Positions 4,305 through 14,123 of a DNA stretch of 15,423 nt are shown in pieces. The position numbers and the translations under genes were made by a program. Below the pieces are notes generated by a model that worked only from the letters and a program-made list of their open reading frames with translations, did not search any database and had not been told where the DNA came from. This stretch comes from Candidatus Sumerlaeia bacterium (GTDB taxonomy: Bacteria > Sumerlaeota > Sumerlaeia > SLMS01), in contig JBBQYG010000091.1 in NCBI GenBank assembly GCA_038208905.1, positions 1 to 15,423 of the forward strand. Reading direction: 5' to 3'. Numbering within the stretch: the stretch's first letter is position 1; every line of letters starts with the position of its first letter.

Positions 4305-5993
4305 TCAGAAGATCATCCAGGACGCATCGCCCGGAGCACCCAGAAGGAAGGACACGTGGCCCACCGTGGCGGGTGCGTTTTCCTCTGCGTCATACATCGC
4401 AAGAAAGCTGACAGCCTTGGGCATTGCCGTATCGCGAAAGGGCGCAACGAAGCGCGGGGCGACGCTCTGGTAAACCAGCGTGGCCTCCACCGTGACGGCT
4501 CCATCGGCGGCGGAGATGTCGAACTCATAGGTGACGACGTCGGCGCCGGTTCCCTCCACCGCCGCATCCCGATTGAAGTTGGGATCGGTGGCCGCATCGC
4601 CGATAATCGCCGTGCTGGCGGCGTGGGAACCCGTGGACAGATAGCCGCGAGGCGGCAGTCGGTTGTCCTTCAGGTAGGACGCCGCCCCCATGAGCGATGT
4701 AGTCACGGCGCCGCCGAGGTCGGCGATGATCGGCTCGTACACCTGCACGTCCGCGGGATTGGCGATCAAGTCGTGGTGGGGCTCAAACGGATCAGACAAT
4801 CCCACGATCTCGCCGTCGGGATTCCACGCGCCCGATTCAAATAGCACGTTCCCGCCCGCGTCACGCGCCACGAACTTCAGCCACGCCCGCCGCGCCGGAT
4901 ATCCCGTCGGGAACTTGTGACCCGCCAGATTCTCCAGCCGCACGGCCACCCGCGCCTTGCCATCGTCGGCGTCGAGTTCCGCGACGCTCACGTTCACCGT
5001 GCGCGTGCGCAGCTGATCGAGAGTGCGCTCGATCGTGCGGTCGAACTGCTCCTCCGATGCTGTCAACCCCAAGCCGTCGATGTTATTCTTCAACAGGCTC
5101 AGCATGAAAGCGTTCCCGCCCACAAAGTAGTGCTTGTAGAATGGCGTGTGCTCGACGCCGGGCGGGAAGCTGGAGATAACCACCGGGTCGGTGGTGATCG
5201 GCATGTGGCAATCCTGGCAGCTCTGGATCGAGGCCGGCTGGGAGAACACGCTGTTTTTCCACTCCAGATACGGCGTCTGCTCCGGGAACTGGCCTAGAAT
5301 AGTTCCCAGATCGTCCACGATGGGAGTGAAGAGCGTGTGGCACGTCGCGCACACTTCCGACTGCGTCTTGTGGGCGCCGTATTGTGGCGTGTAGTTCAGC
5401 GCGCTCTGCATCGCAAACTGGTAGATGTCCTCCGTCGCGTAGGGGCCAAAAATCACGCGCTCGTCTGTGATTTCGTAGCCGCCATTCCAGCTTTCCGGCG
5501 TGCCCAGATTGTCCGGCTGGATCTGGTGGCACAGCGTGCAGCTCACGCCGTCGCGGGCCAGCGGCGATACCTCGGCCTGTGCGAGGGAGAAGCTCGTCGC
5601 GCCGTCGTGGATCGCCTGGGTCCTCGCCATCGGCGCATGGCATGTCAGGCAGGAATCCTCGATCTCAGCCTTTCGCCCGGGGCGAAGCGCCACTTCGCGC
5701 TCCAGCGTGGCTTGAAAGTACGGATCCGTGAATGAATTCGCCATCATCGTCGAACGCCAATCCTGGGGAGGAGAGAGGTCGTTTCCCTCCTTGTCGCGCA
5801 GGACCTCGCCATCGGAGGTGTGACAGAACTCGCAATTCCCGGAGCCGGCAAAAAGCGACGACTGCGCCATTTCGAGCGGGAGGCCGGCCCCCTGCTTGGG
5901 ACCCGGCACGCGCGCGACGAATGCCGTGGCCGTGGCCACGAGGCAGGGGACCGCGGCGATGCGTAGGACCTGGGCAAGGCGATGGCGGATCAC
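4305..5993 (-). CDS. Secreted pentaheme c-type cytochrome with C-terminal beta-rich domain
   Basis: Five CxxCH motifs (CEFCH, CLTCH, CTLCH, CATCH, CQDCH), GHKFPTG motif, signal-like N-terminus from GTG 5993, which overlaps the upstream stop (GTGA). Ends ...GDASWMIF. Confidence 0.92.
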   Translation of the reverse strand: MIRHRLAQVLRIAAVPCLVATATAFVARVPGPKQGAGLPLEMAQSSLFAGSGNCEFCHTSDGEVLRDKEGNDLSPPQDWRSTMMANSFTDPYFQATLEREVALRPGRKAEIEDSCLTCHAPMARTQAIHDGATSFSLAQAEVSPLARDGVSCTLCHQIQPDNLGTPESWNGGYEITDERVIFGPYATEDIYQFAMQSALNYTPQYGAHKTQSEVCATCHTLFTPIVDDLGTILGQFPEQTPYLEWKNSVFSQPASIQSCQDCHMPITTDPVVISSFPPGVEHTPFYKHYFVGGNAFMLSLLKNNIDGLGLTASEEQFDRTIERTLDQLRTRTVNVSVAELDADDGKARVAVRLENLAGHKFPTGYPARRAWLKFVARDAGGNVLFESGAWNPDGEIVGLSDPFEPHHDLIANPADVQVYEPIIADLGGAVTTSLMGAASYLKDNRLPPRGYLSTGSHAASTAIIGDAATDPNFNRDAAVEGTGADVVTYEFDISAADGAVTVEATLVYQSVAPRFVAPFRDTAMPKAVSFLAMYDAEENAPATVGHVSFLLGAPGDASWMIF

Positions 5994-7540
5994 TGAAGAC
6001 TCCAGACGTCGCCTTCCGGATACTGGATGGTCAGGTAGCGGTCGATCTCGACGTTGGTGAGAATCTGCTCCTTCTTGTCCGGCCACACGACGCGAAGCGT
6101 TTCGATGACAGCGGCGGCGCCGAGCCCGAAGTGCACGGGAAGATCGCTCTGGTTGAACGTGCCCGCGTTGGTGTTGGCCTCGCGGCGCAGGGTGCGCTCC
6201 TGCGGGGTTCCCTTGTGGATCGTGGCATAGAGCGTCGCCCCGATCGCCGTGGTGTTCTCCTTCCGCCCGCGCAGGCGCACTTGCAGCCAGTGATTTCCGT
6301 TGGCGGCTGCGTTGCTGACATACAGGCGCTCGGGAAACGAGGAGTTCGTGGCAGTGATCAGGTCCATGTCGCCGTCGCCATCGATGTCTCCCCAGGCACT
6401 GTCATAGCCACCCTCGTTCTCCCACAGGAGTCCCTCCGCATCGGTCACATCGACGAAGGCCCAGTTGCCATCGTTGCGATAGAGCGCCATCGCCTGATTC
6501 AACGTTCTCGCCAAGTGATCGTGGAAGAAAAAGTCCAAGTCGCCATCGTTGTCATAGTCGACCGCCTTGCTGCCATTGAGGTCGGCGCCGTTATTGGCGA
6601 AGGGCTGGCTGCCAAGGACCGTCGCGACATCGCTCCACGCTCCCCCGCCATCGTTGCGGAAAATCCGGGTGGGATTGCCGTCGGCCCCGGTCACATAGAG
6701 GTCCAGATCGCCGTCGTCGTCGAGATCGACGAACTCCGTGCCATAGCTATTCGCGAGGTATTGCGTGCCGTTTGAATCGGCGATATCGACGAAGGTCAAT
6801 GTGCCATCGGGGACGAGGCGATTCTCGAAGAAATTGTTCCGTATGTTCCCGCCCTGGATGCAGGTGGATATATAGATATCCAGATCGCCGTCGCCGTCAT
6901 AGTCGCCGACAGCCATGCCATAGGCCTTGGTGCCAAAGTCCACTTGCAACCCCGCGGCCGCGCCGACCGGGGTAAAGCTTCCGTCGGAATTCTGGATGTA
7001 GATCTCGTGCCGCTCGGGGCCCTCCATGCCGATGATCAGGTCCAGGTCGCCATCGTTGTCGATGTCGTTCCACGCCACGTTCTGGTGGAAGCCGGGCTCG
7101 TTGATGGTGGAGGCACTGACATCCACGAATCCAAGCGGGTGATCGTTGCGGAAAAGGTCGCCGCGTGCCGAACGGGGATTCGCCTGGCCGAGGAATACAT
7201 CCACGCGGCCGTCGCCGTTGTAGTCGCCCCACGCGGCGCTCCACCCGGTGGTGTCGCTGGCGACGGGGCCCAACTGCGGGGTAACGTTGGTGAAGGCAAG
7301 TGTCTGTGTGGAGGTGCTGTCGTTCCTGAGCAGTCGGCGCGCGTCGGCGCTCCCCTGCACCAGCACATCAAGGTCGCCATCGGCGTCGTAGTCGCCGAGC
7401 GAGATGCTGATGCCGTTCAAGTTCTGAGTGCCCAGAACGGCGCTCGGCGCGCGCTCGAAAGTCTGGGCCGAGGCTGTTGCAAGCCCTAGCCCCGCCAGAA
7501 TCCCCAACAAGTGCCGCAGCCCCAATGATCCAAAATCCAC
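5990..7540 (-). CDS. Secreted FG-GAP/VCBS beta-propeller protein with C-terminal ASPIC/UnbV domain (CRTAC1-like)
   Basis: Seven DxD/NxDGxxD repeats (DYDADGDLD, DYNGDGRVD, DIDNDGDLD, DYDGDGDLD, DLDDDGDLD, DYDNDGDLD, DIDGDGDMD); NHWLQVRLRG...AIGA...QSDLPVHFGLG...VVWPD matches ASPIC/UnbV. GTG 7540 follows GAAGGGGG; signal peptide ...LGLATASA|QTF. Ends ...EGDVWSLQ. Confidence 0.92.
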   Translation of the reverse strand: MDFGSLGLRHLLGILAGLGLATASAQTFERAPSAVLGTQNLNGISISLGDYDADGDLDVLVQGSADARRLLRNDSTSTQTLAFTNVTPQLGPVASDTTGWSAAWGDYNGDGRVDVFLGQANPRSARGDLFRNDHPLGFVDVSASTINEPGFHQNVAWNDIDNDGDLDLIIGMEGPERHEIYIQNSDGSFTPVGAAAGLQVDFGTKAYGMAVGDYDGDGDLDIYISTCIQGGNIRNNFFENRLVPDGTLTFVDIADSNGTQYLANSYGTEFVDLDDDGDLDLYVTGADGNPTRIFRNDGGGAWSDVATVLGSQPFANNGADLNGSKAVDYDNDGDLDFFFHDHLARTLNQAMALYRNDGNWAFVDVTDAEGLLWENEGGYDSAWGDIDGDGDMDLITATNSSFPERLYVSNAAANGNHWLQVRLRGRKENTTAIGATLYATIHKGTPQERTLRREANTNAGTFNQSDLPVHFGLGAAAVIETLRVVWPDKKEQILTNVEIDRYLTIQYPEGDVWSLQ

Positions 7541-7568
7541 GTGCTTTCCCCCTTCATGGGCAAGGCGG

Positions 7569-7599
7569 ACAATAGTCACCGGCTCCCCGAAAGTGTCAA
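7569..7599 (-). promoter_or_regulatory. Candidate sigma70 promoter for the FG-GAP and cytochrome genes
   Basis: Perfect -35 TTGACA (7599-7594) followed by GACTAT (16-nt spacer) or TATTGT (19-nt spacer), about 30 nt upstream of GTG 7540. The -10 match and spacing are imperfect. Confidence 0.45.
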
Positions 7600-7853
7600 C
7601 CGTTCCGGTCATGCAATTGAACGCGATTCCCGCCCACCTTCTTGGCGAGACACATGGCATTGTGGGCCGGGTGAAGCAAATGGCTGGCGGCCCCGCATTC
7701 TGGCGAAAGCCCGGCCACGCCAAAGCTCGCTGCAACCCGGATGGCCCCCCACTCTGCCGACATGCTCACCAGCTCAAGGCATTGCCGGATGCCTTCGGCC
7801 AGTGCCAAGGCGACCGCCGCGGTGAACGCGGCGCCCGAGATCGATTCTGGCAC
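7596..7853 (-). pseudogene. Degenerate C-terminal fragment of a GGDEF (diguanylate cyclase) domain
   Basis: ALALAEGIRQCLE...IRVAASFGVA...LLHPAHNAMCLAKKVGGNRV matches the GGDEF C-terminal consensus (LAERIR...VTASFGVA...LLxxADxAMYxAKxxGRNRV). SGAAF sits where GGDEF is expected; the N-terminal half is missing and an in-frame TGA lies 5 codons upstream. Confidence 0.75.
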
Positions 7854-7884
7854 CGTTTCCCTGAATCACCGCCCTTCTGAATGT

Positions 7885-7918
7885 AAACAAACGCTCCACC
7901 AGAGCGGGAGCCTCCCGC
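7885..7918 (-). terminator. Possible intrinsic terminator downstream of the CotH gene
   Basis: Minus strand: GCGGGAG-G-CTCCCGC palindrome overlapping a CGCTC-TGGTG-GAGCG hairpin, followed by TTTGTTT, about 40-70 nt after the stop at 7957. Confidence 0.35.
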
Positions 7919-7956
7919 CGGCGACGCCAACGCTGGGCGATCAGGGGGGCACCGCC

Positions 7957-10251
7957 TCAGAAGACCTTCCAGTTCGCCGGCGGCGCGGCCGGCACGTTGG
8001 TCGCCCCCGGGGTCATTCCCGGCAAGGTCACGATTCCCGCCCCGCCATCGGGGAGTCTCCCCTGGGAAACATTGGCCGTCTGCGCCGGGTAGGTCAGCGT
8101 ATCGATCGGCTGGACCTGATTCGCGTCGTTGTCGAAGATGCCGATGGACTCGCCCCCGGCGCTCAGTGCGAACGCCGCATGCAACGGACCCTCAAGCGGC
8201 TCGTTGTCGCACCACACCAGCAGGAAGCCCTTCGCCGGGATCATCGTCCCCGCGGGGAACTGCCACTTGGTCCGATTCAGCAGGTTGTCTGTGAGGTAGA
8301 GCCCCGTCAATTCCACCGCAGTGGCTTCGCCGTTGTAGATTTCCACCCAGTCATCGAAGTCCCCGGCTTCGTCCTGGGGGCCTGCGGAGTTGGATGCCAG
8401 GAACTCGTTGATAAACAGGCGCGGCGGCACGCGGGGCTCTCCCCCGCCACAATCGCCGGTGGTTCCATCGTTGATTGCCAGCGGCGTCGGGTTGCACATC
8501 GTCACCAGCCCATCGCCGCCATCGGGAACCCGCCCAAAGGAACGATTGTTGGTGAGCGGCGTGTAGGTCAGGTGATCGACCAGTACCCGGCCATTGGCCT
8601 CGTCCATGAACAAGCCCAGATTCTCGCCGGTTACCCCAAGTGCAAACGGCGCGTGCAACGGGCCCTCCAGCGGCTCGTTGTCGCACCACACCAGCAGGTA
8701 GCCCTTCGAGGGAATCGTGGTCCCCGCGGGGATCACCCACTTCAGCGGATCCAGCACATCGTCGGTCAGGTGCCAGCCGGAGACATCCACCGCCGCGTCC
8801 TCGTCGTTGTAGAGTTCAATCCAGTCCTCGAAGTCCCCAGCCTCGTCCTGGTTCGAGGCCGTATTGCTGGCAAGGGCCTCGTTGATAGACACGCGCGGCA
8901 GTGGAAGCGTCGGCGAGACGAAGCCTCCGATCTGGGACACGATCGACGCGCTCCGCGCGTTCATGTAGGGCTTGAGGCCCATCGTGTGATAGTCGCTGCC
9001 GTCATAGCTCGATGGGCTCGCGATGCCTGTGGCAAAGAAGGGTGAATGCTCCCCGCTGGTTGACTGCGTTCCCACCGTTCCGCCGCTTTCAATGGTGCCA
9101 TCGAAGTAGGGCAGGATCTGCGCGTGCCAGATGTCCAGCTTCGCCTGGTTCGCGGGGAGCACCAACAGCGCCGCCGCCGCCAGCAGATAGCGCCGGTACT
9201 GCGCCCGCCACGGGCTGTGGTCGAAGATCGCGCTGACCAGCGGCGCCGGCGTACTGCCAAAGCCGCCATTTCCCCACGTCGAGAAATTCCGCGTGGACCA
9301 GTTGCGCCCGAAGTAGTCCATTCCCAGGGAGTTGTCATAGTCGAAGGGGATGAATTCGAACCGGTTGGTATTCGGATTCCGGTACATGTAGTAGTTGTTG
9401 GCGCCATACCAGTAATCGTCCCACGATCCCACAGCCACATCCGCCGCAAGCGATCGCAGGAAGTTGTCGGTATTCAACGACGACTCGAGCTGCGTCAGCC
9501 GCTGCGCCGCCGTGGTATCGTTCAGCAAGCGGATGAAGTCCACCAAGTCTGTATAGACAGAGAGGGGATCGTTGTTCCCTTCATCATAGACCTGGCCACC
9601 GCCATACGTGGCATAGTCCTCGCCGGGGATCTTTGCCAAATCAGCCTTTCCGCCTCCGGCGTTGAGGCACTTGTAGAGGTTGCCGGTCTTGGTGCCGAAC
9701 CAGGAATCGGCAAATTCCTCGTCGATGTGCTCGGTGTGGACCTGTATGCTCCAGAAGTCGCCGTTGATATAGAGCGCCACGAAATGCGTTCGGGGCGCCG
9801 GCAAGCCCATCTGGCGAAGGATCTCGTGCGACATGCGGCGACGCAGGAAGGTGGGATCGTTGTGCTCGCCGTTCAGGTCGATGGACTCCAGCCCGTGAAA
9901 CGAGCGGCCGGGAACGAAGTCGTTGAAATCCAACTTCCACGACTTGCGCGTTGCCGAGCGCGTGAACTGGCCACCGCGCGGGCGAAAGCCCACATCGGCA
10001 ACCGTCTCGTCGATTACGGAATTCCGCCACCGGATCGTCGCATTCTTGTCCACATCGGCAAAGGGATCGGCAAGAAGGTCGGCGAAGTCCGTCGGCTCGA
10101 CCGTCACATCCACGCGCGCCACCTCTCCATCGCGGAAGACATTCGCGGCGGCATCCGCATAGTCCGCGTCGTTGGGCGGCGGCGTCCATGCGCCCGCCAC
10201 ACCGGCCAACATTGCCGCCACACCGCCCGCCACTGCTCGGAATCCCGCCAT
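7957..10251 (-). CDS. Secreted CotH-family kinase fused to two tandem lamin-tail domains (LTD)
   Basis: CotH motifs RGGQFTR, KSWKLDF, DPTFLR, APRTHFVALYING, GNLYK, WDDYWYGANNYYMY, FIPFDYDNSLG; two LTDs (INExLASN...DWIELYN / DWVEIYN...IPxKGYLLVWCD / GFLLVWCD...GRxPDG). Strong RBS GGAGGAG; signal peptide ...LAGVAGA|WT. Ends ...PPANWKVF. Confidence 0.93.
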   Translation of the reverse strand: MAGFRAVAGGVAAMLAGVAGAWTPPPNDADYADAAANVFRDGEVARVDVTVEPTDFADLLADPFADVDKNATIRWRNSVIDETVADVGFRPRGGQFTRSATRKSWKLDFNDFVPGRSFHGLESIDLNGEHNDPTFLRRRMSHEILRQMGLPAPRTHFVALYINGDFWSIQVHTEHIDEEFADSWFGTKTGNLYKCLNAGGGKADLAKIPGEDYATYGGGQVYDEGNNDPLSVYTDLVDFIRLLNDTTAAQRLTQLESSLNTDNFLRSLAADVAVGSWDDYWYGANNYYMYRNPNTNRFEFIPFDYDNSLGMDYFGRNWSTRNFSTWGNGGFGSTPAPLVSAIFDHSPWRAQYRRYLLAAAALLVLPANQAKLDIWHAQILPYFDGTIESGGTVGTQSTSGEHSPFFATGIASPSSYDGSDYHTMGLKPYMNARSASIVSQIGGFVSPTLPLPRVSINEALASNTASNQDEAGDFEDWIELYNDEDAAVDVSGWHLTDDVLDPLKWVIPAGTTIPSKGYLLVWCDNEPLEGPLHAPFALGVTGENLGLFMDEANGRVLVDHLTYTPLTNNRSFGRVPDGGDGLVTMCNPTPLAINDGTTGDCGGGEPRVPPRLFINEFLASNSAGPQDEAGDFDDWVEIYNGEATAVELTGLYLTDNLLNRTKWQFPAGTMIPAKGFLLVWCDNEPLEGPLHAAFALSAGGESIGIFDNDANQVQPIDTLTYPAQTANVSQGRLPDGGAGIVTLPGMTPGATNVPAAPPANWKVF
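7985..8892 (-). repeat. Intragenic tandem duplication encoding the two lamin-tail domains (period 474 nt)
   Basis: Identical 30-mer AGCGGCTCGTTGTCGCACCACACCAGCAGG at 8195-8224 and 8669-8698; CTCGTTGATA at 8404 and 8878; both pairs are offset by 474 nt. Confidence 0.85.
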
Positions 10252-10521
10252 TCCCTTGCTCCTCCATAGGTTCCGCGCTGTGCGCGCAACAGTGCAAACG
10301 ACTACACATGGAAGGGTGGGTCAATGGGGGGATTTGGAGCGTAAGCAGGTTTTGGTCAACCAGATGAAGGCTACACAAATTCGGCAAGCCGGCATCCATC
10401 TGGGCAGGCAACTACCCAATTGTTGAGGATTCCTCTTGCCCGAACCACATCTGTGGGCACATCCTCCGACTGCGCTGTCCATTTCCATGGCTGATCGCAC
10501 ATCCCACTCAAAGGTCGCACC

Positions 10522-12009
10522 ATGAAATCAAAGACGAAATTTTCGAGCATCGCTCTGTTGGCAGCAGCGTTGACGCTGACGGCGGGGACGGCTGGCGCTG
10601 CACCCTTCGCATCTCAAATCACCGTAAGCAGCACCAGCGTCGAGGTTGGCGACGGGCTGACGATCGCCTACTTCATCAATGAAGCCGGATCGACGGTCAC
10701 CATCGAGGTTCTTAGTAGCACAAACACAATCCTCGCGACATTCGCGGGAACCGCAACCGTCGGCGCCAACTCTGTCGTCTGGAACGGCACGGCAGACAAC
10801 GCCTCGGGCGCAGCGGTTGGCGCCGGATCCGGCCGCAAGGTCCAGATTACCGCGGCAAAGACGGCGGCCGCTGGCTGGGCTGAGATCGCCTCAAACCGGT
10901 CAGTCGGCAATTTTGGGGCTCCTGCTACGCTGAACACCCTGTTCGCTGGGTTTTCCGGCAGGGACGTCCATTCTTTCGATGATCCCAATTCGCCGCGATT
11001 CGGAATCGTCGTTTCCTCCTCCAGCTTCCTTACTCCTGCGCACTATGGATTCATCCCCTTCAATCCGGATTTGTCGGTCTATGGTGGCGGCGACGGTCTT
11101 ACGGCGCGCGTCATGAAGCACCCCGCTGATCCCCTCGTCGCGACCATTGGCGCAGTGACCAGCAATCAGGCCACCTGGGGCGTGGAGGCTGACCCCGACA
11201 ATTCTGAGAACCTGTATGTCTTCGGTCAGGGACTTCCCGATGTGACCTACGCAGACAACGCGGCTGCTGGCTCGGGTTTTGCCGACTTGACCAGTATCAG
11301 CCCGAATGCCGCAACTGCCAACTATCGCGGCGGCGCCGTCCAGACCTATGCCAGCGTCAAATTTGCGTACTTGGCTTCCGGCAATTCTACCATAACTCGG
11401 CGCCAGATTGACGGGACCAATCAGATTCTGCTCACACCCAGCGACAATATCCTCGGGCTGACCGCGACGAATCTCTACAGCCGCGAGGTCCTGTTCGACG
11501 CCGCCGGCAACCTCTACTGGGTTTCCCGTTTCGCCGCCAACGCCGCAACAGGCAATGGCCGCCTCTTCCGCTGGTCCGCTGCCTTGGCATCCGCTGCCGT
11601 TGCGGCCTCGTTGACTGAGGCCAATGCCGACTGGGTGGTGACGCTTCCCTCGACAGGTGCCGATGAGGTAACTGATGCCATCATTGCGCCGGATGGCAGT
11701 GTTTTCCTTGTCGCTGAGTCGGGCATCTATGCTGTCGGCAATACGTCGGACGCAACAAAGACGATCACTCTGACCGCCAGCGAGAAGGTGCTGGATTTCG
11801 CGGCGCTTTCTGGCGGCTTTGTCCTCGGCCCGCTTGGCGGCGCTGATATGGATTTCGCGGGCAATATCATCGTCTGTGAAAACGGAAACGAGCAGATCCG
11901 CACCTACACCCCCGGCGGCAACACGAGCGTCGTCGTCCCCGCGCCCTCCGCGCAGGCCTTCGACATCGTCATGCTGTCTAGCAGCCAGAACTGGGAAATG
12001 TACAAGTAA
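10522..12009 (+). CDS. Secreted protein with N-terminal FlgD-type Ig-like domain and putative beta-propeller; function unknown
   Basis: Classic Sec signal MKSKTKFSSIALLAAALTLTAGTAGA|APF; IAYFINEAGSTVTIEVL...GANSVVWNGTADNASGAAV resembles FlgD_ig; propeller-like blades (LFDAAGNLYW, IAPDGSVFL, MDFAGNIIV). Ends ...SSSQNWEMYK. Confidence 0.85.
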   Translation: MKSKTKFSSIALLAAALTLTAGTAGAAPFASQITVSSTSVEVGDGLTIAYFINEAGSTVTIEVLSSTNTILATFAGTATVGANSVVWNGTADNASGAAVGAGSGRKVQITAAKTAAAGWAEIASNRSVGNFGAPATLNTLFAGFSGRDVHSFDDPNSPRFGIVVSSSSFLTPAHYGFIPFNPDLSVYGGGDGLTARVMKHPADPLVATIGAVTSNQATWGVEADPDNSENLYVFGQGLPDVTYADNAAAGSGFADLTSISPNAATANYRGGAVQTYASVKFAYLASGNSTITRRQIDGTNQILLTPSDNILGLTATNLYSREVLFDAAGNLYWVSRFAANAATGNGRLFRWSAALASAAVAASLTEANADWVVTLPSTGADEVTDAIIAPDGSVFLVAESGIYAVGNTSDATKTITLTASEKVLDFAALSGGFVLGPLGGADMDFAGNIIVCENGNEQIRTYTPGGNTSVVVPAPSAQAFDIVMLSSSQNWEMYK

Positions 12010-12233: not shown

Positions 12234-14123
12234 ATGGCCAAGACGCCCGACGCGCCCTATCAGGTGATCCCCCTCAAGTACCGCCCCCAGGTATTTTCCA
12301 CCGTGGTCGGGCAGCGGTCCGTGGTGCGCCAGTTGCAGACGGATATCCGCGACAATCGCATCGGGCACGCCTATCTGTTCACGGGTCCGCGCGGAGTCGG
12401 CAAGACGTCGATCGCGCGCATTCTGGCCAAGGCCCTGAACTGCGTGAAGGGGCCCACGCCGGACCCCTGTGGCGAGTGCGTCCATTGCCGCAGCATCGCC
12501 AACGACTCGGACTTTGACGTGATCGATGTGGACGCGTAGTCCTACACCAAGAAGGAGGAGACGATCGAGCTGCTTGAGGGGATCGACCGGGCCACCTTCG
12601 ACGCGCGATACAAGGTTTATATCATCGACGAAGTCCACATGTTCTCCACGCACTCCTTCAACGTGCTGCTCAAGCGACTGGAGGAGCCGCCCCCCGGCGT
12701 GGTGTTCATCCTGGCCACGACGAATCCGGAGAAGATTCCCGAGACCGTGATCTCGCGCTGTCGTCGCCTCGAATTCGACCGCATGGACACCACGGTGATC
12801 GTGGACCGCCTTCGCGATATCGCGGCGCGCGAGGGCGTGACCTTTGCCGATGGCGAGGCGGACAAGGTGCTGGAGGCCATCGCGCTGGCCAGCGAGGGCG
12901 GCATGCGCGACGCCCAGGTGGCGCTCGACCAGTTGATCTCCCTGAGCGATGGCACGGTGACCTTCGAGACCACGCGCCAGCTCCTCGGCGTGGTGGAAAG
13001 CGACCAGCTCCTCGCGCTGCTCAATGGACTCGTCCAGCGCGATTCCACCGCGTGCCTGCTGCTGATTCAGGACCTGGTGGACAAGGGCCGGGACCTACAC
13101 CGCTTCATCAAGACATTCACCGCCTTCCTCCGCGATGCGATGCTGCTAAAGGCCAACGCCCCGGTGGAGCTGCTGAAGGTGTCCCGGGCAAATCCCGAGA
13201 AGCTCCGCGCGGCGCTGGAGGGCCTTTCGCTCCCCGCGCTGATGAATTTCGTGCAGCAGTTCCTCGATCTGGAGGAGAAGATGCGCGGCGCGGCCCCCGC
13301 GCGATTCGTGCTGGAGTTCGCCGTGCTCAAGCTGACGGCGATCCACCCGCGCTTCGTCCTCGACGCGCTGGACAAGCCCACGCTCGACCGCGTGGCCCCG
13401 GCCCCCGCCACCGAGCCGAAACCAGCACCCACGCCCGTTGCCAGCGCACCGGCAAGCCAATCGATGGAGCGCGTCAGCGAGCCCGCAGGTTCGGGGGGGT
13501 ACTCCCCCACCGCTTCGCGCGCCGCGGCACCGATCCTCCACGATGGCAGCCACGCCAACGCGGCGCTGGAACTCCCCGACATCGAAGTGGACGAGCCATC
13601 GCCGTCCGTCGTGTATCCCGCCCCCGAAATGGTGACGCTGTCGCGCGCCCGCGCATTCGACGACGGTGCCCTGAACCGGTTCCGCGAGGAGACCGACCTG
13701 CGCCTCCCCGCGCACCTCCGCGTGATGCGCGCGGCGACGGCCCGCCTCGATGGGGAGGGCATGTTGACGCTGCTCCTTTCCGCCAACGATGGCGTCGTGC
13801 GCCAGTCCCTCGAACGCCCCGAGATCGCTTCGATCTTCCGCGCTGTCGCCGCCGAAGTCCTCGGCGACGGCGTCCGCATTCGCATCGAGGTAGCCGCGCC
13901 GGAACCCTCCGAAAGCGCCGACCGCGACGCGTATCCCGATATGCCACCCCTGTTTGACGACGAGGAGGAGTCGGTGTCGCCCCCCGGCAAGCCCGCTGCC
14001 ACGGAGCGTATGAGCTTCACCGAGGCCCTGATGCGGTTCCCTGACTTCCGCGCGGCCATCGACCTCGTCAGAAACCATTGCGGCGTCGATCCCCACCTCT
14101 TTAATGGCGAACGCATTTCGTAA
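12234..14123 (+). CDS. dnaX: DNA polymerase III subunit gamma/tau, interrupted by one in-frame TAG at codon 102 (12537-12539)
   Basis: KYRPQ, HAYLFTGPRGVGKT (Walker A), Zn module CVKG...PCGECVHC, DVDA*S, YKVYIIDEVHM (Walker B), LEEPP, SRC, GGMRDA. ORF-track pieces 12234-12539 and 12639-14123 are in the same frame and the intervening codons are open. It may be a pseudogene, a readthrough case or a sequence error. Confidence 0.93.

Follow-up and report, generated by a model that had tools for sequence, protein, structure and literature searches.

A short tryptophan-containing C-terminal tail on unrelated exported proteins of a Candidatus Sumerlaeia bacterium: a candidate sorting or docking signal

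Several described systems place an address label at the C-terminus of exported proteins. The type A C-terminal domain of the type IX secretion system (T9SS; TIGR04183, PF18962) is found, like the tail studied here, at the extreme C-terminus of unrelated Sec-exported enzymes and adhesins, but it is a folded domain of 70-100 residues that is read by PorV/SprA and cut by PorU, whereas the tail comprises about 11 residues that are predicted to be disordered. The LPXTG/sortase, PEP-CTERM/exosortase, GlyGly-CTERM/rhombosortase and MYXO-CTERM/myxosortase systems likewise put a C-terminal tag on many unrelated exported proteins of a single lineage. Such tripartite signals combine a motif, a membrane helix and a basic cluster with a dedicated membrane enzyme, whereas the tail has neither helix nor basic cluster.

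Very short C-terminal address labels are also known, i.e. the beta-signal of outer membrane proteins (OMP), which has a C-terminal aromatic residue and is read by BAM, and the peroxisomal PTS1 tripeptide. The tail shares with both its tiny size, its place close to or at the C-terminus and its aromatic or hydrophobic end. It differs from both, which are strictly terminal, in that 25 of 61 tails are not, and from the beta-signal in that its pattern (W, x, hydrophobic, aromatic) lacks strand-like alternation. The WxL cell-wall binding domain of Firmicutes carries a W-x-L motif near its C-terminus. WxL domains and dockerins mediate C-terminal, non-covalent surface docking of exported proteins, a role that may also be proposed for the tail, but they are folded modules of 60-180 residues, and no Pfam family covers the tail in the 44 carriers scanned.

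A further parallel is offered by the TcpF/CofJ signal of type IVb pili (readers TcpB/CofB). In PMC10120004, the disordered export signal of TcpF is described as being read by the minor pilin TcpB; like the tail, which is predicted to be disordered, it is a short linear peptide on a Sec-exported folded protein. The reading of this signal by a pilin serves passage through a secretin, and the cargo and pilin genes are linked; for the tail, pilin genes adjoin 5 of the 7 best members but only 6 of 72 overall. The TcpF-type signal is N-terminal in the mature protein, is removed upon secretion and has a single cargo in each system, whereas the tail is C-terminal, occurs on about 72 proteins and is only a candidate for pilin binding. 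More generally, the choice of folded cargo to cross the outer membrane by type II secretion (T2SS) and related machines is presented as poorly understood in PMC10120004 and PMC12369372.

In this work, we focused on a window of 15,423 nucleotides, i.e. positions 1 to 15,423 of contig JBBQYG010000091.1 (assembly GCA_038208905.1) of a Candidatus Sumerlaeia bacterium, for which a first-pass annotation had pointed out four secreted proteins with similar C-termini. The four genes and their tails are the following.

4305..5993, minus strand: multihaem c-type cytochrome gene (Pfam), 562 aa from the likely start, with a signal peptide
4308-4337 (stop 4305-4307), minus strand: the end ...APGDASWMIF of the cytochrome tail ...GAPGDASWMIF, a weaker member
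5990..7612, minus strand: FG-GAP / UnbV_ASPIC protein gene (Pfam), 540 aa
5993-6019 (stop 5990-5992), minus strand: the end ...PEGDVWSLQ of the FG-GAP tail ...YPEGDVWSLQ, directly behind the ASPIC domain, with a final Q, a weaker member
7957..10251, minus strand: CotH kinase-like gene with two lamin-tail domains (CotH-LTD; Pfam), 764 aa
7960-7989 (stop 7957-7959), minus strand: CotH-LTD tail ...AAPPANWKVF
10522..12009, plus strand: gene of a secreted protein of no confident family, 495 aa, with weak SGL-propeller and FlgD_ig matches
11977-12006 (stop 12007-12009), plus strand: tail of this fourth protein, ...SSSQNWEMYK, the best in the window, with one residue beyond the aromatic

All four C-termini were found in the window sequence exactly at the stops claimed, and the start of the cytochrome gene and the stop of the FG-GAP gene upstream of it overlap at 5990-5993. 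Pfam agreed with the labels cytochrome, FG-GAP/ASPIC and CotH-LTD, but the name 'FlgD-Ig' proposed for the fourth protein was not upheld: this match (E 0.0097) falls under the family cut-off, and the SGL match is equally weak. Signal peptides had been attributed to all four proteins; signal-peptide-like N-termini were indeed recovered, in the FG-GAP protein only when an internal start is used. Here and below, gene calls and signal-peptide calls come from our own heuristics and not from a standard gene caller or SignalP.

The window tails were scored with a position matrix built from 68 tails outside the window, against a null of 33,160 truncated proteins. The fourth protein reached 21.3 bits and CotH-LTD 15.8 bits, and none of the 33,160 nulls scored as high as either. 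The FG-GAP and cytochrome tails reached 7.1 bits each (null fraction 6.3e-4) and are for this reason considered weaker members. With the same matrix, none of the nine remaining called genes in the window scored above -9.8. None of 2000 random gene sets contained four tail genes in a row, and among random signal-peptide-like sets 0.2% did. The window tails thus exceed chance, and the best explanation is that they are copies of one short linear C-terminal motif.

Genome-wide, this motif spans about 11 residues, P-P-S-S-[V/A]-x-[D/N]-W-x-[L/M/I/V]-[Y/F/H/Q], with the stop directly behind it or separated from it by one polar residue, rarely by two, and a sequence logo confines conservation to this stretch. 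It was found (at least 8 bits) on 72 of 3316 called proteins, vs 1.2 expected from truncated nulls, i.e. on about 2% of the proteome or one protein in fifty; the tail of the fourth window protein ranks 8 among these 72. The regular-expression scan suggested earlier revealed the same enrichment, with 53 of 3316 proteins matching vs 1-8 after the proteins were cut back by 10-50 residues. At position -4, tryptophan is 2.2-fold more frequent than background (101 of 3316 proteins). The tails have no membrane helix or basic cluster and end 0-2 residues past the aromatic. One or two extra, mostly polar, residues beyond it occur in 25 of 61 tails (about 40%), which speaks against a reader dependent on a free carboxylate in a fixed position (PDZ or PTS1-type).

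The tail is restricted to exported proteins, and nearly all carriers are Sec-exported. Among tail proteins whose N-terminus is known, 55 of 69 passed a strict signal-peptide rule vs 547 of 3031 other proteins (odds ratio 17.8, Fisher p 9e-28), so that the enrichment foreseen in the first-pass annotation was borne out; in most of the 14 failing the rule, a signal peptide is visible by eye. The carriers themselves are diverse. With the last 12 residues removed, they form 58 BLAST components, including 52 singletons, and they range over unrelated families of enzymes, lectin-like modules and adhesin-type repeat proteins. Pfam families among the 40 carriers scanned were GH18, GHL10, reprolysin, trypsin, PAD, GSDH-cadherin, LTD, F5/8-C and FG-GAP, and 21 of the 40 had no family. 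Some carriers contain choice-of-anchor D, Q and Z domains (NCBIfam), which elsewhere accompany tripartite sorting signals.

Structure was modelled for L031, a tail protein encoded beside a pilin gene. In its AlphaFold2 model, residues 271-300 lie behind a beta-sandwich core, have a pLDDT below 50 and form no secondary structure, and the tail is therefore predicted to be a flexible, disordered extension. A protein atlas search with L031 returned only matches below 0.9 and no useful family. An OMP beta-signal was also considered and rejected, since the carriers are soluble multi-domain proteins of enzyme, lectin and repeat families and not beta-barrels, the aromatic is followed by further residues in 25 of 61 tails and the L031 tail is predicted to be disordered.

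Known signals and their machinery were then sought. The comparison with the NCBIfam sorting-signal models that the first-pass annotation had proposed gave no match to the tail: none of 44 tail proteins (the four of the window and 40 others) matched TIGR04183 or any sorting-domain model at E <= 0.05, and the PEP-CTERM and LPXTG models gave no match in these 44. No Pfam domain covered the tail in any of them, and no WxL or dockerin family appeared in their Pfam results. As for the machinery, exosortase (PF09721) was not found in G000 (93.9% complete), with a control match in Methanocaldococcus jannaschii, and sortase (PF04203) was not found in the genome, with control matches in three Gram-positive genomes. 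None of four tail-using genomes, i.e. G000, G005 (a single contig, 96% complete), G061 and G065, gave a match to the T9SS translocon domain SprA_N (PF14349), which was matched in the Flavobacterium control G066 (5e-130). PF18962 was not found in the genome either, in a search that gave no control-genome match. Hence no known signal matched the tail, and sortase, exosortase and the T9SS translocon are absent from the genomes searched.

The tail is conserved in orthologues, as would be expected under selection. In the CotH-LTD orthologues of the phylum and in those of L031, the W-x-hydrophobic-aromatic end is kept while the linkers vary in length and sequence, and the protein P0186, 64% identical to the FG-GAP protein, ends in ...DAWTLQ. 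The tail also sits in the place of known sorting domains. It is absent from the 150 best FG-GAP/ASPIC representatives of other lineages, which agrees with the earlier view that its tryptophan is not part of the core fold; 39 of these 150 carry T9SS-type ends (by motif) and two more are PEP-CTERM-like. When 13 representatives were scanned, 6 of 8 motif-picked ends tested reached the TIGR04183 cut-off. In three CotH orthologues, a dockerin-like module replaces the tail.

The distribution of the tail was assessed with a locus scan using the pattern T-x-V-x-D-W-x-L-Y-stop. Of 80 loci, 49 end long ORFs, and all 49 are in metagenome-assembled genomes (MAGs) labelled Sumerlaeota, Hinthialibacteria or 'Omnitrophota', or without a name. 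The link to Sumerlaeota, put forward in the first-pass annotation, is sustained by named homologues of up to 67% identity, which are labelled Candidatus Sumerlaeota, and by 18 real tail loci in Sumerlaeota-labelled MAGs. The idea of a lineage-specific tag had to be given up, since the tail also occurs in the phylum-level group of Hinthialibacteria OLB16, where 15 of 21 true-stop matches end ORFs of at least 150 aa, with signal peptides visible where the N-terminus is present. The tail is therefore present in two phyla. It is not universal within the phylum of the window: in family f8, none of 95 signal-peptide-like ORFs carries it (four genomes, 400 kb). In 200-kb samples of four genomes, 1-3 tails each were found among 108-148 genes (nulls 0-0.1), which fits presence with low power.

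Per-genome counts of the DNA pattern RAYTGGNNNNTNTWYTRR against a reversed control were also obtained, but negative controls showed the reversed pattern to be an unclean null confounded by base composition (38 vs 7 in Flavobacterium, 30 vs 12 in a cyanobacterium). These counts were consequently not used to class genomes, presence was judged instead by ORF-end checks and sampled DNA, and the distribution within the phylum is only suggestive. Nine 'D-W-E-L-Y-stop' matches in a Pirellulaceae control belong to a non-coding repeat (ORFs of 11-33 aa) and were discarded as tails. A literature search, including the topics Sumerlaeota, Hinthialibacter and type II secretion, retrieved no description of the tail; in the main texts, a term search found neither 'C-terminal' nor 'sorting' in PMC9324843, and neither 'C-terminal' nor 'outer membrane' in PMC8092238. 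The tail looks like an undescribed address label for surface or exterior proteins.

The neighbourhood of tail genes was surveyed, and the sole family recurring within two genes of them was one of GspG-like prepilins, as identified with Pfam and NCBIfam. The genome encodes four secretins, one true GspG and 37 pilin-like genes. A pilin gene adjoins 5 of the 7 best tails and 6 of the 20 best, vs 0 of the 52 others; counted from the pilin side, a tail gene is at most one gene away for 6 of 37 (P 0.017) and at most two genes away for 9 of 37 (P 0.009). In the OLB16 phylum, a pilin starts 30-140 nt past the tail stop on the same strand in 5 of 15 real loci vs 0 of 15 chance loci, and in the phylum of the window 6 of 30 best-pilin loci had the same tail-then-pilin order. 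The best-matching tail genes adjoin GspG-like pilin genes in both phyla.

This linkage is partial. Away from tail genes lie 28 of the 37 pilin-like genes, 66 of the 72 tail genes have no adjacent pilin, and none of the four tail genes of the window has one. The GspG-like family is expanded to 16-75 genes per genome, and family f8 has 29-75 of them despite the missing tails in its sampled ORFs, meaning that the pilin family does not depend on the tail. The C36 secretin, the only one of the four to be profiled, is present in 59 of 61 genomes including those of tail-poor families and does not discriminate. A complex prediction, run without controls, between the soluble part of a pilin (C34_3575-4225, residues 38-216) and the last 34 residues of its neighbour L031 scored 0.02 vs a mark of 0.32 and was counted neither for nor against binding.

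Taken together, we infer from sequence comparison that the tail may act as a sorting or docking signal. In the scheme that we consider somewhat favoured, it would be a post-Sec recognition tag for delivery to, or docking at, the surface or exterior, most likely read by a T2SS or type IV pilus (T4P)-like machine. About 2% of the bacterium's proteins would bear the motif behind a flexible and variable linker; after Sec export, the tail would mark folded periplasmic proteins for surface or exterior delivery or docking, a role for which homologues in other lineages have T9SS C-terminal domains, PEP-CTERM signals or dockerins instead; and a type II secretion or type IV pilus-like component would read it. 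A T2SS/T4P-like reader, i.e. a pilin or another part of such a machine, is favoured because of the four secretins, the GspG, the 37 pilin-like genes and the pilins beside the best tails in both phyla. Outer-membrane export or surface-layer attachment, as proposed earlier, is likewise a putative role. Only tentatively can one go further and regard the tail as a general, transferable linear code of about ten C-terminal residues, by which GspG-like pilins or another periplasmic part would take about 2% of the proteome through a secretin.

If the tail is such a tag, a linear signal common to dozens of unrelated cargo proteins would make cargo choice testable with peptides and reporters, the secretomes of two uncultured polysaccharide-degrading phyla would become predictable from sequence, annotation pipelines would gain a missing sorting-signal model, and a small portable export or display tag might be available for biotechnology. 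Should the export code hold, T2SS/T4P-like machines would for the first time have a simple linear signal, one that replaces T9SS or exosortase systems in two uncultured phyla. Even as a docking or processing signal, the tail would mark a large coherent set of surface and secreted proteins.

Among the alternatives, the tail could be a retention tag rather than an export tag. Proteins exported by another route would be held non-covalently on a pilus-like fibre of GspG-like pilins, on the outer membrane/LPS or on an S-layer, as dockerin, SLH or WxL modules do. The dockerin-like modules at the exact tail site in CotH-LTD orthologues, the best tails on small lectin/CBM-like proteins encoded beside pilin genes, the great expansion of the pilin family (16-75 per genome) and the choice-of-anchor domains of the carriers are all consistent with it. 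We nonetheless regard it as rather unlikely: four to seven core residues are few for anchoring a protein stably, an unsystematic look found no scaffold protein with repeated receptor modules, and the pilin linkage is partial, with f8 having pilins without tails.

The tail could also be a cleavage and attachment site, which a PorU- or sortase-like transpeptidase of the periplasm or outer membrane would remove, joining the protein covalently to a lipid or glycan. This would fit with the tail occupying the site of T9SS and PEP-CTERM signals, both of which are cut off as an anchor takes their place, and the small polar S-S-[V/A]-x-[D/N] stretch ahead of the tryptophan could be the cleavage region. 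We hold this to be improbable, since the tail has no membrane helix or basic cluster by which a precursor would stay close to a membrane enzyme, searches for sortase, exosortase and the T9SS translocon were negative, and no candidate enzyme was identified.

PDZ proteases read short hydrophobic or aromatic C-termini, and a protease of the Ctp/Prc or DegS/DegP type might recognize the tail, predicted to be exposed and disordered, in order to mature or degrade carriers or to sense envelope load. Such a quality-control signal is very improbable: a carboxylate-anchored PDZ pocket would not tolerate the extra, mostly polar residues of 25 of 61 tails, and a degron on 2% of the proteome that is conserved among orthologues and replaces sorting domains would be hard to explain.

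Finally, that there is no signal and the shared ending merely reflects chance, an artefact of composition or gene calling, or the final strand of a C-terminal domain that the carriers have in common, is hardly credible and was rejected, for although the motif was defined post hoc by the first-pass annotation and the window includes two weak tails among its four (7.1 bits), 72 tails were observed vs 1.2 expected, the enrichment persists against truncated controls, and conservation is limited to about 11 residues on 58 unrelated carrier groups, in a tail that is predicted to be disordered, is conserved in orthologues and recurs in a second phylum.

Translation of the window yielded the four C-termini and stops that the first-pass annotation had reported for proteins sharing a short Trp-containing ending, hereafter the tail. 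Three of its domain labels were confirmed by Pfam, and the FlgD-Ig label of the fourth protein proved sub-threshold. The four genes are as follows:

Stop at 4305, minus strand: multihaem cytochrome (named by Pfam), ending ...GAPGDASWMIF
Stop at 5990, minus strand: FG-GAP/UnbV_ASPIC protein (named by Pfam), ending ...YPEGDVWSLQ
Stop at 7957, minus strand: CotH protein with two lamin-tail domains (CotH-LTD; named by Pfam), ending ...AAPPANWKVF
Stop at 12009, divergent from the other three: fourth protein, ending ...SSSQNWEMYK, with sub-threshold SGL and FlgD_ig matches only

The first three genes form one minus-strand operon. The stop codon of FG-GAP overlaps the likely start of the cytochrome gene by four bases (5990-5993) and CotH-LTD lies upstream, which suggests a three-gene operon of tail carriers with translational coupling. 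The nine other genes called in the window have housekeeping functions (def, rsmB, era, ybeY, dnaX, ybaB, recR and others), and the earlier claim that the tail is absent from such proteins held for all nine (scores of -9.8 bits or lower). One of them, dnaX (12234-14123, plus strand), contains an in-frame TAG at 12537-12539 (...DVIDVDA*SYTKKEET...), past which the frame stays open to 14123. This TAG lies near the place where DnaX proteins have Asp-Ala-Ala-Ser, and an error in the assembly, readthrough or codon recoding in this essential gene could explain it.

The assembly of the whole genome, G000 (4.24 Mb, 301 contigs, 93.9 % complete), gave 3316 genes with a purpose-built codon-usage caller, whose calls in the window look correct. 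Counted from the end of these proteins, Trp was in excess at two positions only, reaching 2.2 times background at -4 (101 proteins) and 1.5 times at -5 (71 proteins). The regular expression proposed with the first-pass annotation matched 53 proteins in a genome-wide scan, versus 1 to 8 after the same proteins had been trimmed by 10 to 50 residues. With a 12-column position matrix, 72 of the 3316 proteins reached at least 8 bits, versus 1.2 expected from truncated nulls. Taken together, these three results establish that the shared ending is real. The tail logo, drawn from 61 regular-expression matches, has P at -7/-6, S at -5/-4, V or A at -3, D, E or A at -2 and N, D or G at -1 before the Trp, which is followed by a variable residue, then L, M, V or I and finally Y, F, H or Q (each in decreasing order). 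Nothing follows this aromatic position in 36 tails, while 23 carry one further residue and two carry two.

The window tails were scored with a matrix from which the window proteins had been excluded. The fourth protein (21.3 bits) and CotH-LTD (15.8 bits) reached values attained by none of 33,160 nulls, and FG-GAP and cytochrome obtained 7.1 bits each (null fraction 6.3e-4 each); on these scores, the former two are strong members and the latter two weak ones. Four adjacent tail genes occurred in 0 of 2000 random gene sets and in 0.2 % of signal-peptide-like sets.

The predicted enrichment among signal-peptide proteins was clear. A strict signal-peptide rule, positive in 602 of the 3100 G000 proteins with a known N-terminus, was positive in 55/69 tail proteins versus 547/3031 others (odds ratio 17.8, p 9e-28), and most of the 14 rule-negative tail proteins have a signal peptide by eye. 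Without their last 12 residues, the 72 tail proteins fell into 58 BLAST components, 52 of them singletons. Pfam families were sought in 40 carriers and included GH18 chitinase, GHL10, Golvesin_C, F5/8 type C, LTD, FG-GAP, reprolysin-like and trypsin-like peptidases, arginine deiminase, GSDH with cadherin-like repeats and EEP nuclease/phosphatase; 21 of the 40 had no family, and in none did a Pfam domain extend into the tail.

Relatives of the window proteins were compared at the tail position. CotH-LTD orthologues in the phylum end, for instance, in ...SAWKLN, ...LGWMIQ, ...DGWAVW, ...EGWILH, ...NVWALH, ...GGWTMY or ...SSWILI, after linkers of differing length. In three of them (L003, L005 and L011, from genomes G051, G035 and G057, respectively), dockerin-like calcium-binding repeats replace the Trp tail; dockerin-type docking is therefore also present in this phylum. 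Among the best 150 FG-GAP/ASPIC representatives related to the window protein, none has the tail: 39 have T9SS type A-like ends by motif (of 13 representatives scanned, 6 of 8 with T9SS-like ends met the TIGR04183 cut-off) and two relatives have PEP-CTERM-like ends. Since ASPIC relatives end in these other ways, the Trp lies outside the ASPIC fold, contrary to the possibility, raised earlier, that homologues elsewhere carry it within their core domain. One 64 %-identical relative ends in ...DAWTLQ, resembling the window protein. Orthologues of L031, the best-scoring tail protein of G000, retain S-V-x-[D/E]-W-x-hydrophobic-aromatic, followed by at most one further residue. In an AlphaFold2 model of L031 (7-row alignment, mean pLDDT 64), a beta-sandwich core weakly resembling lectin/CBM jelly rolls is followed by 30 final residues with pLDDT under 50.

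None of 44 carriers matched an NCBIfam sorting-signal model at E <= 0.05, and release 20 contains no model that matches the tail. The carriers contain choice-of-anchor D, Q and Z domains, as well as regions common to myxosortase- and rhombosortase-dependent proteins (NCBIfam). As stated in the first-pass annotation, the tail has neither a TM helix nor a basic cluster. Exosortase and sortase were not found in G000, control genomes being positive, and SprA_N was not found in G000 or in three further tail-using genomes (G005, G061, G065) and was present in the Flavobacterium control. Literature searches, including term searches in genome papers of these phyla, returned no published description of the tail.

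A DNA pattern for T-x-V-x-D-W-x-L-Y-stop was searched in one genome per species, giving at least 121 stretches, of which 80 were examined. It ends a long ORF in 49 loci (48 open across the 600-nt flank, one of 107 aa), labelled Sumerlaeota/Sumerlaeales (18), 'Omnitrophota' (4), Hinthialibacteria OLB16 (1) or unlabelled (26). The other 31 loci, from named Bacteroidota, Proteobacteria, Firmicutes, archaea and others, were rejected as tails: their ORFs do not exceed 68 aa, and they are therefore chance matches. In the phylum-level group of OLB16 (26 sampled genomes, larger and none in common with the sample of the window's phylum), 15 of 21 true-stop matches end ORFs of at least 150 aa with ...V-x-[D/N]-W-x-[L/I/M]-Y, and signal peptides are visible wherever the N-terminus lies within the sequence. 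The proposed link to Sumerlaeota thus stands, and its restriction to a single lineage does not. Nor is tail use universal within the window's phylum, as family f8 had tails on 0 of 95 signal-peptide-like ORFs (400 kb, four genomes), versus 55/602 in G000. In a genome of family f6 (G004, locus L208), giant paralogues of 1488 and 2534 aa end in ...PAMWMVR and ...PAMWVVR, which may be a tail variant closing on Arg. A conserved repeat of about 30 nt in the negative-control Pirellulaceae MAG (G068, L308-L317; at least 10 copies) would encode ...FTNLEDWELY-stop; with ORFs of just 11-33 aa, it was rejected as a protein tail and is a non-coding DNA repeat.

Stated most cautiously, Sec-exported proteins of two uncultured phyla share a genuine C-terminal tag, disordered and about 11 residues long, which is maintained by selection and sits in the position of known modules for surface sorting. 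In our view, it is most likely a label for export or docking that would act once the protein has passed Sec. Recognition by a PDZ or PTS1-like pocket with a fixed carboxylate is disfavoured by the frequent extra residue past the aromatic. A type II secretion or type IV pilus-like machine is the best candidate reader of such a label, albeit still a weak one. The closest characterised precedent is TcpF, whose export signal is recognised by the minor pilin TcpB (PMC10120004).

The sole recurrent family within two genes of tail genes was a prepilin-type protein of 200-250 aa (N-terminus ...GFTLIELLIVVAIIAILAAIAVPNFLEAQTR, conserved end ...YDPTNGTxSxGDI...), which matched N_methyl above cut-off and GspG/PilA models in part. 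Named homologues (up to 67 % identity) of a pilin beside a tail gene carry the labels Candidatus Sumerlaeota, Sumerlaeia and Sumerlaeaceae. This GspG-like family is strongly expanded, with 16-75 profile matches in each of the 41 phylum genomes sampled; most of its genes are solitary, surrounded by unrelated genes. G000 encodes 37 pilin-like genes (e.g. C34:3575-4225, C44:7486-8100 and C49:11151-11747), a true GspG, a GspH-like gene and four secretins, and the one secretin profiled across genomes was present nearly everywhere (59 of 61 genomes). About 30 of the 37 belong to a single subfamily, whose members have an almost identical N-terminal helix.

Among the 72 G000 tails, a pilin gene lies immediately beside 5 of the 7 best, 6 of the 20 best and none of the 52 others, and the overall proximity enrichment is modest (P 0.017 within one gene, P 0.009 within two). 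In the OLB16 phylum, a same-strand pilin starts 30-140 nt past the tail stop in 5/15 real loci versus 0/15 chance loci, and the same order occurs in 6 of 30 best-pilin loci across the window's phylum. The lead is limited, because the majority of pilin genes and of tail genes in G000 are not adjacent to each other, no pilin lies beside any of the four window tail genes and family f8 retains 29-75 such pilins yet lacks tails (0/95). In G000, a pilM-N-O-P-Q-type operon that includes a 724-aa secretin (C12:34124-39702) is located two small genes upstream of a same-strand 992-aa Golvesin_C/fn3 tail protein (C12:28991-31969).
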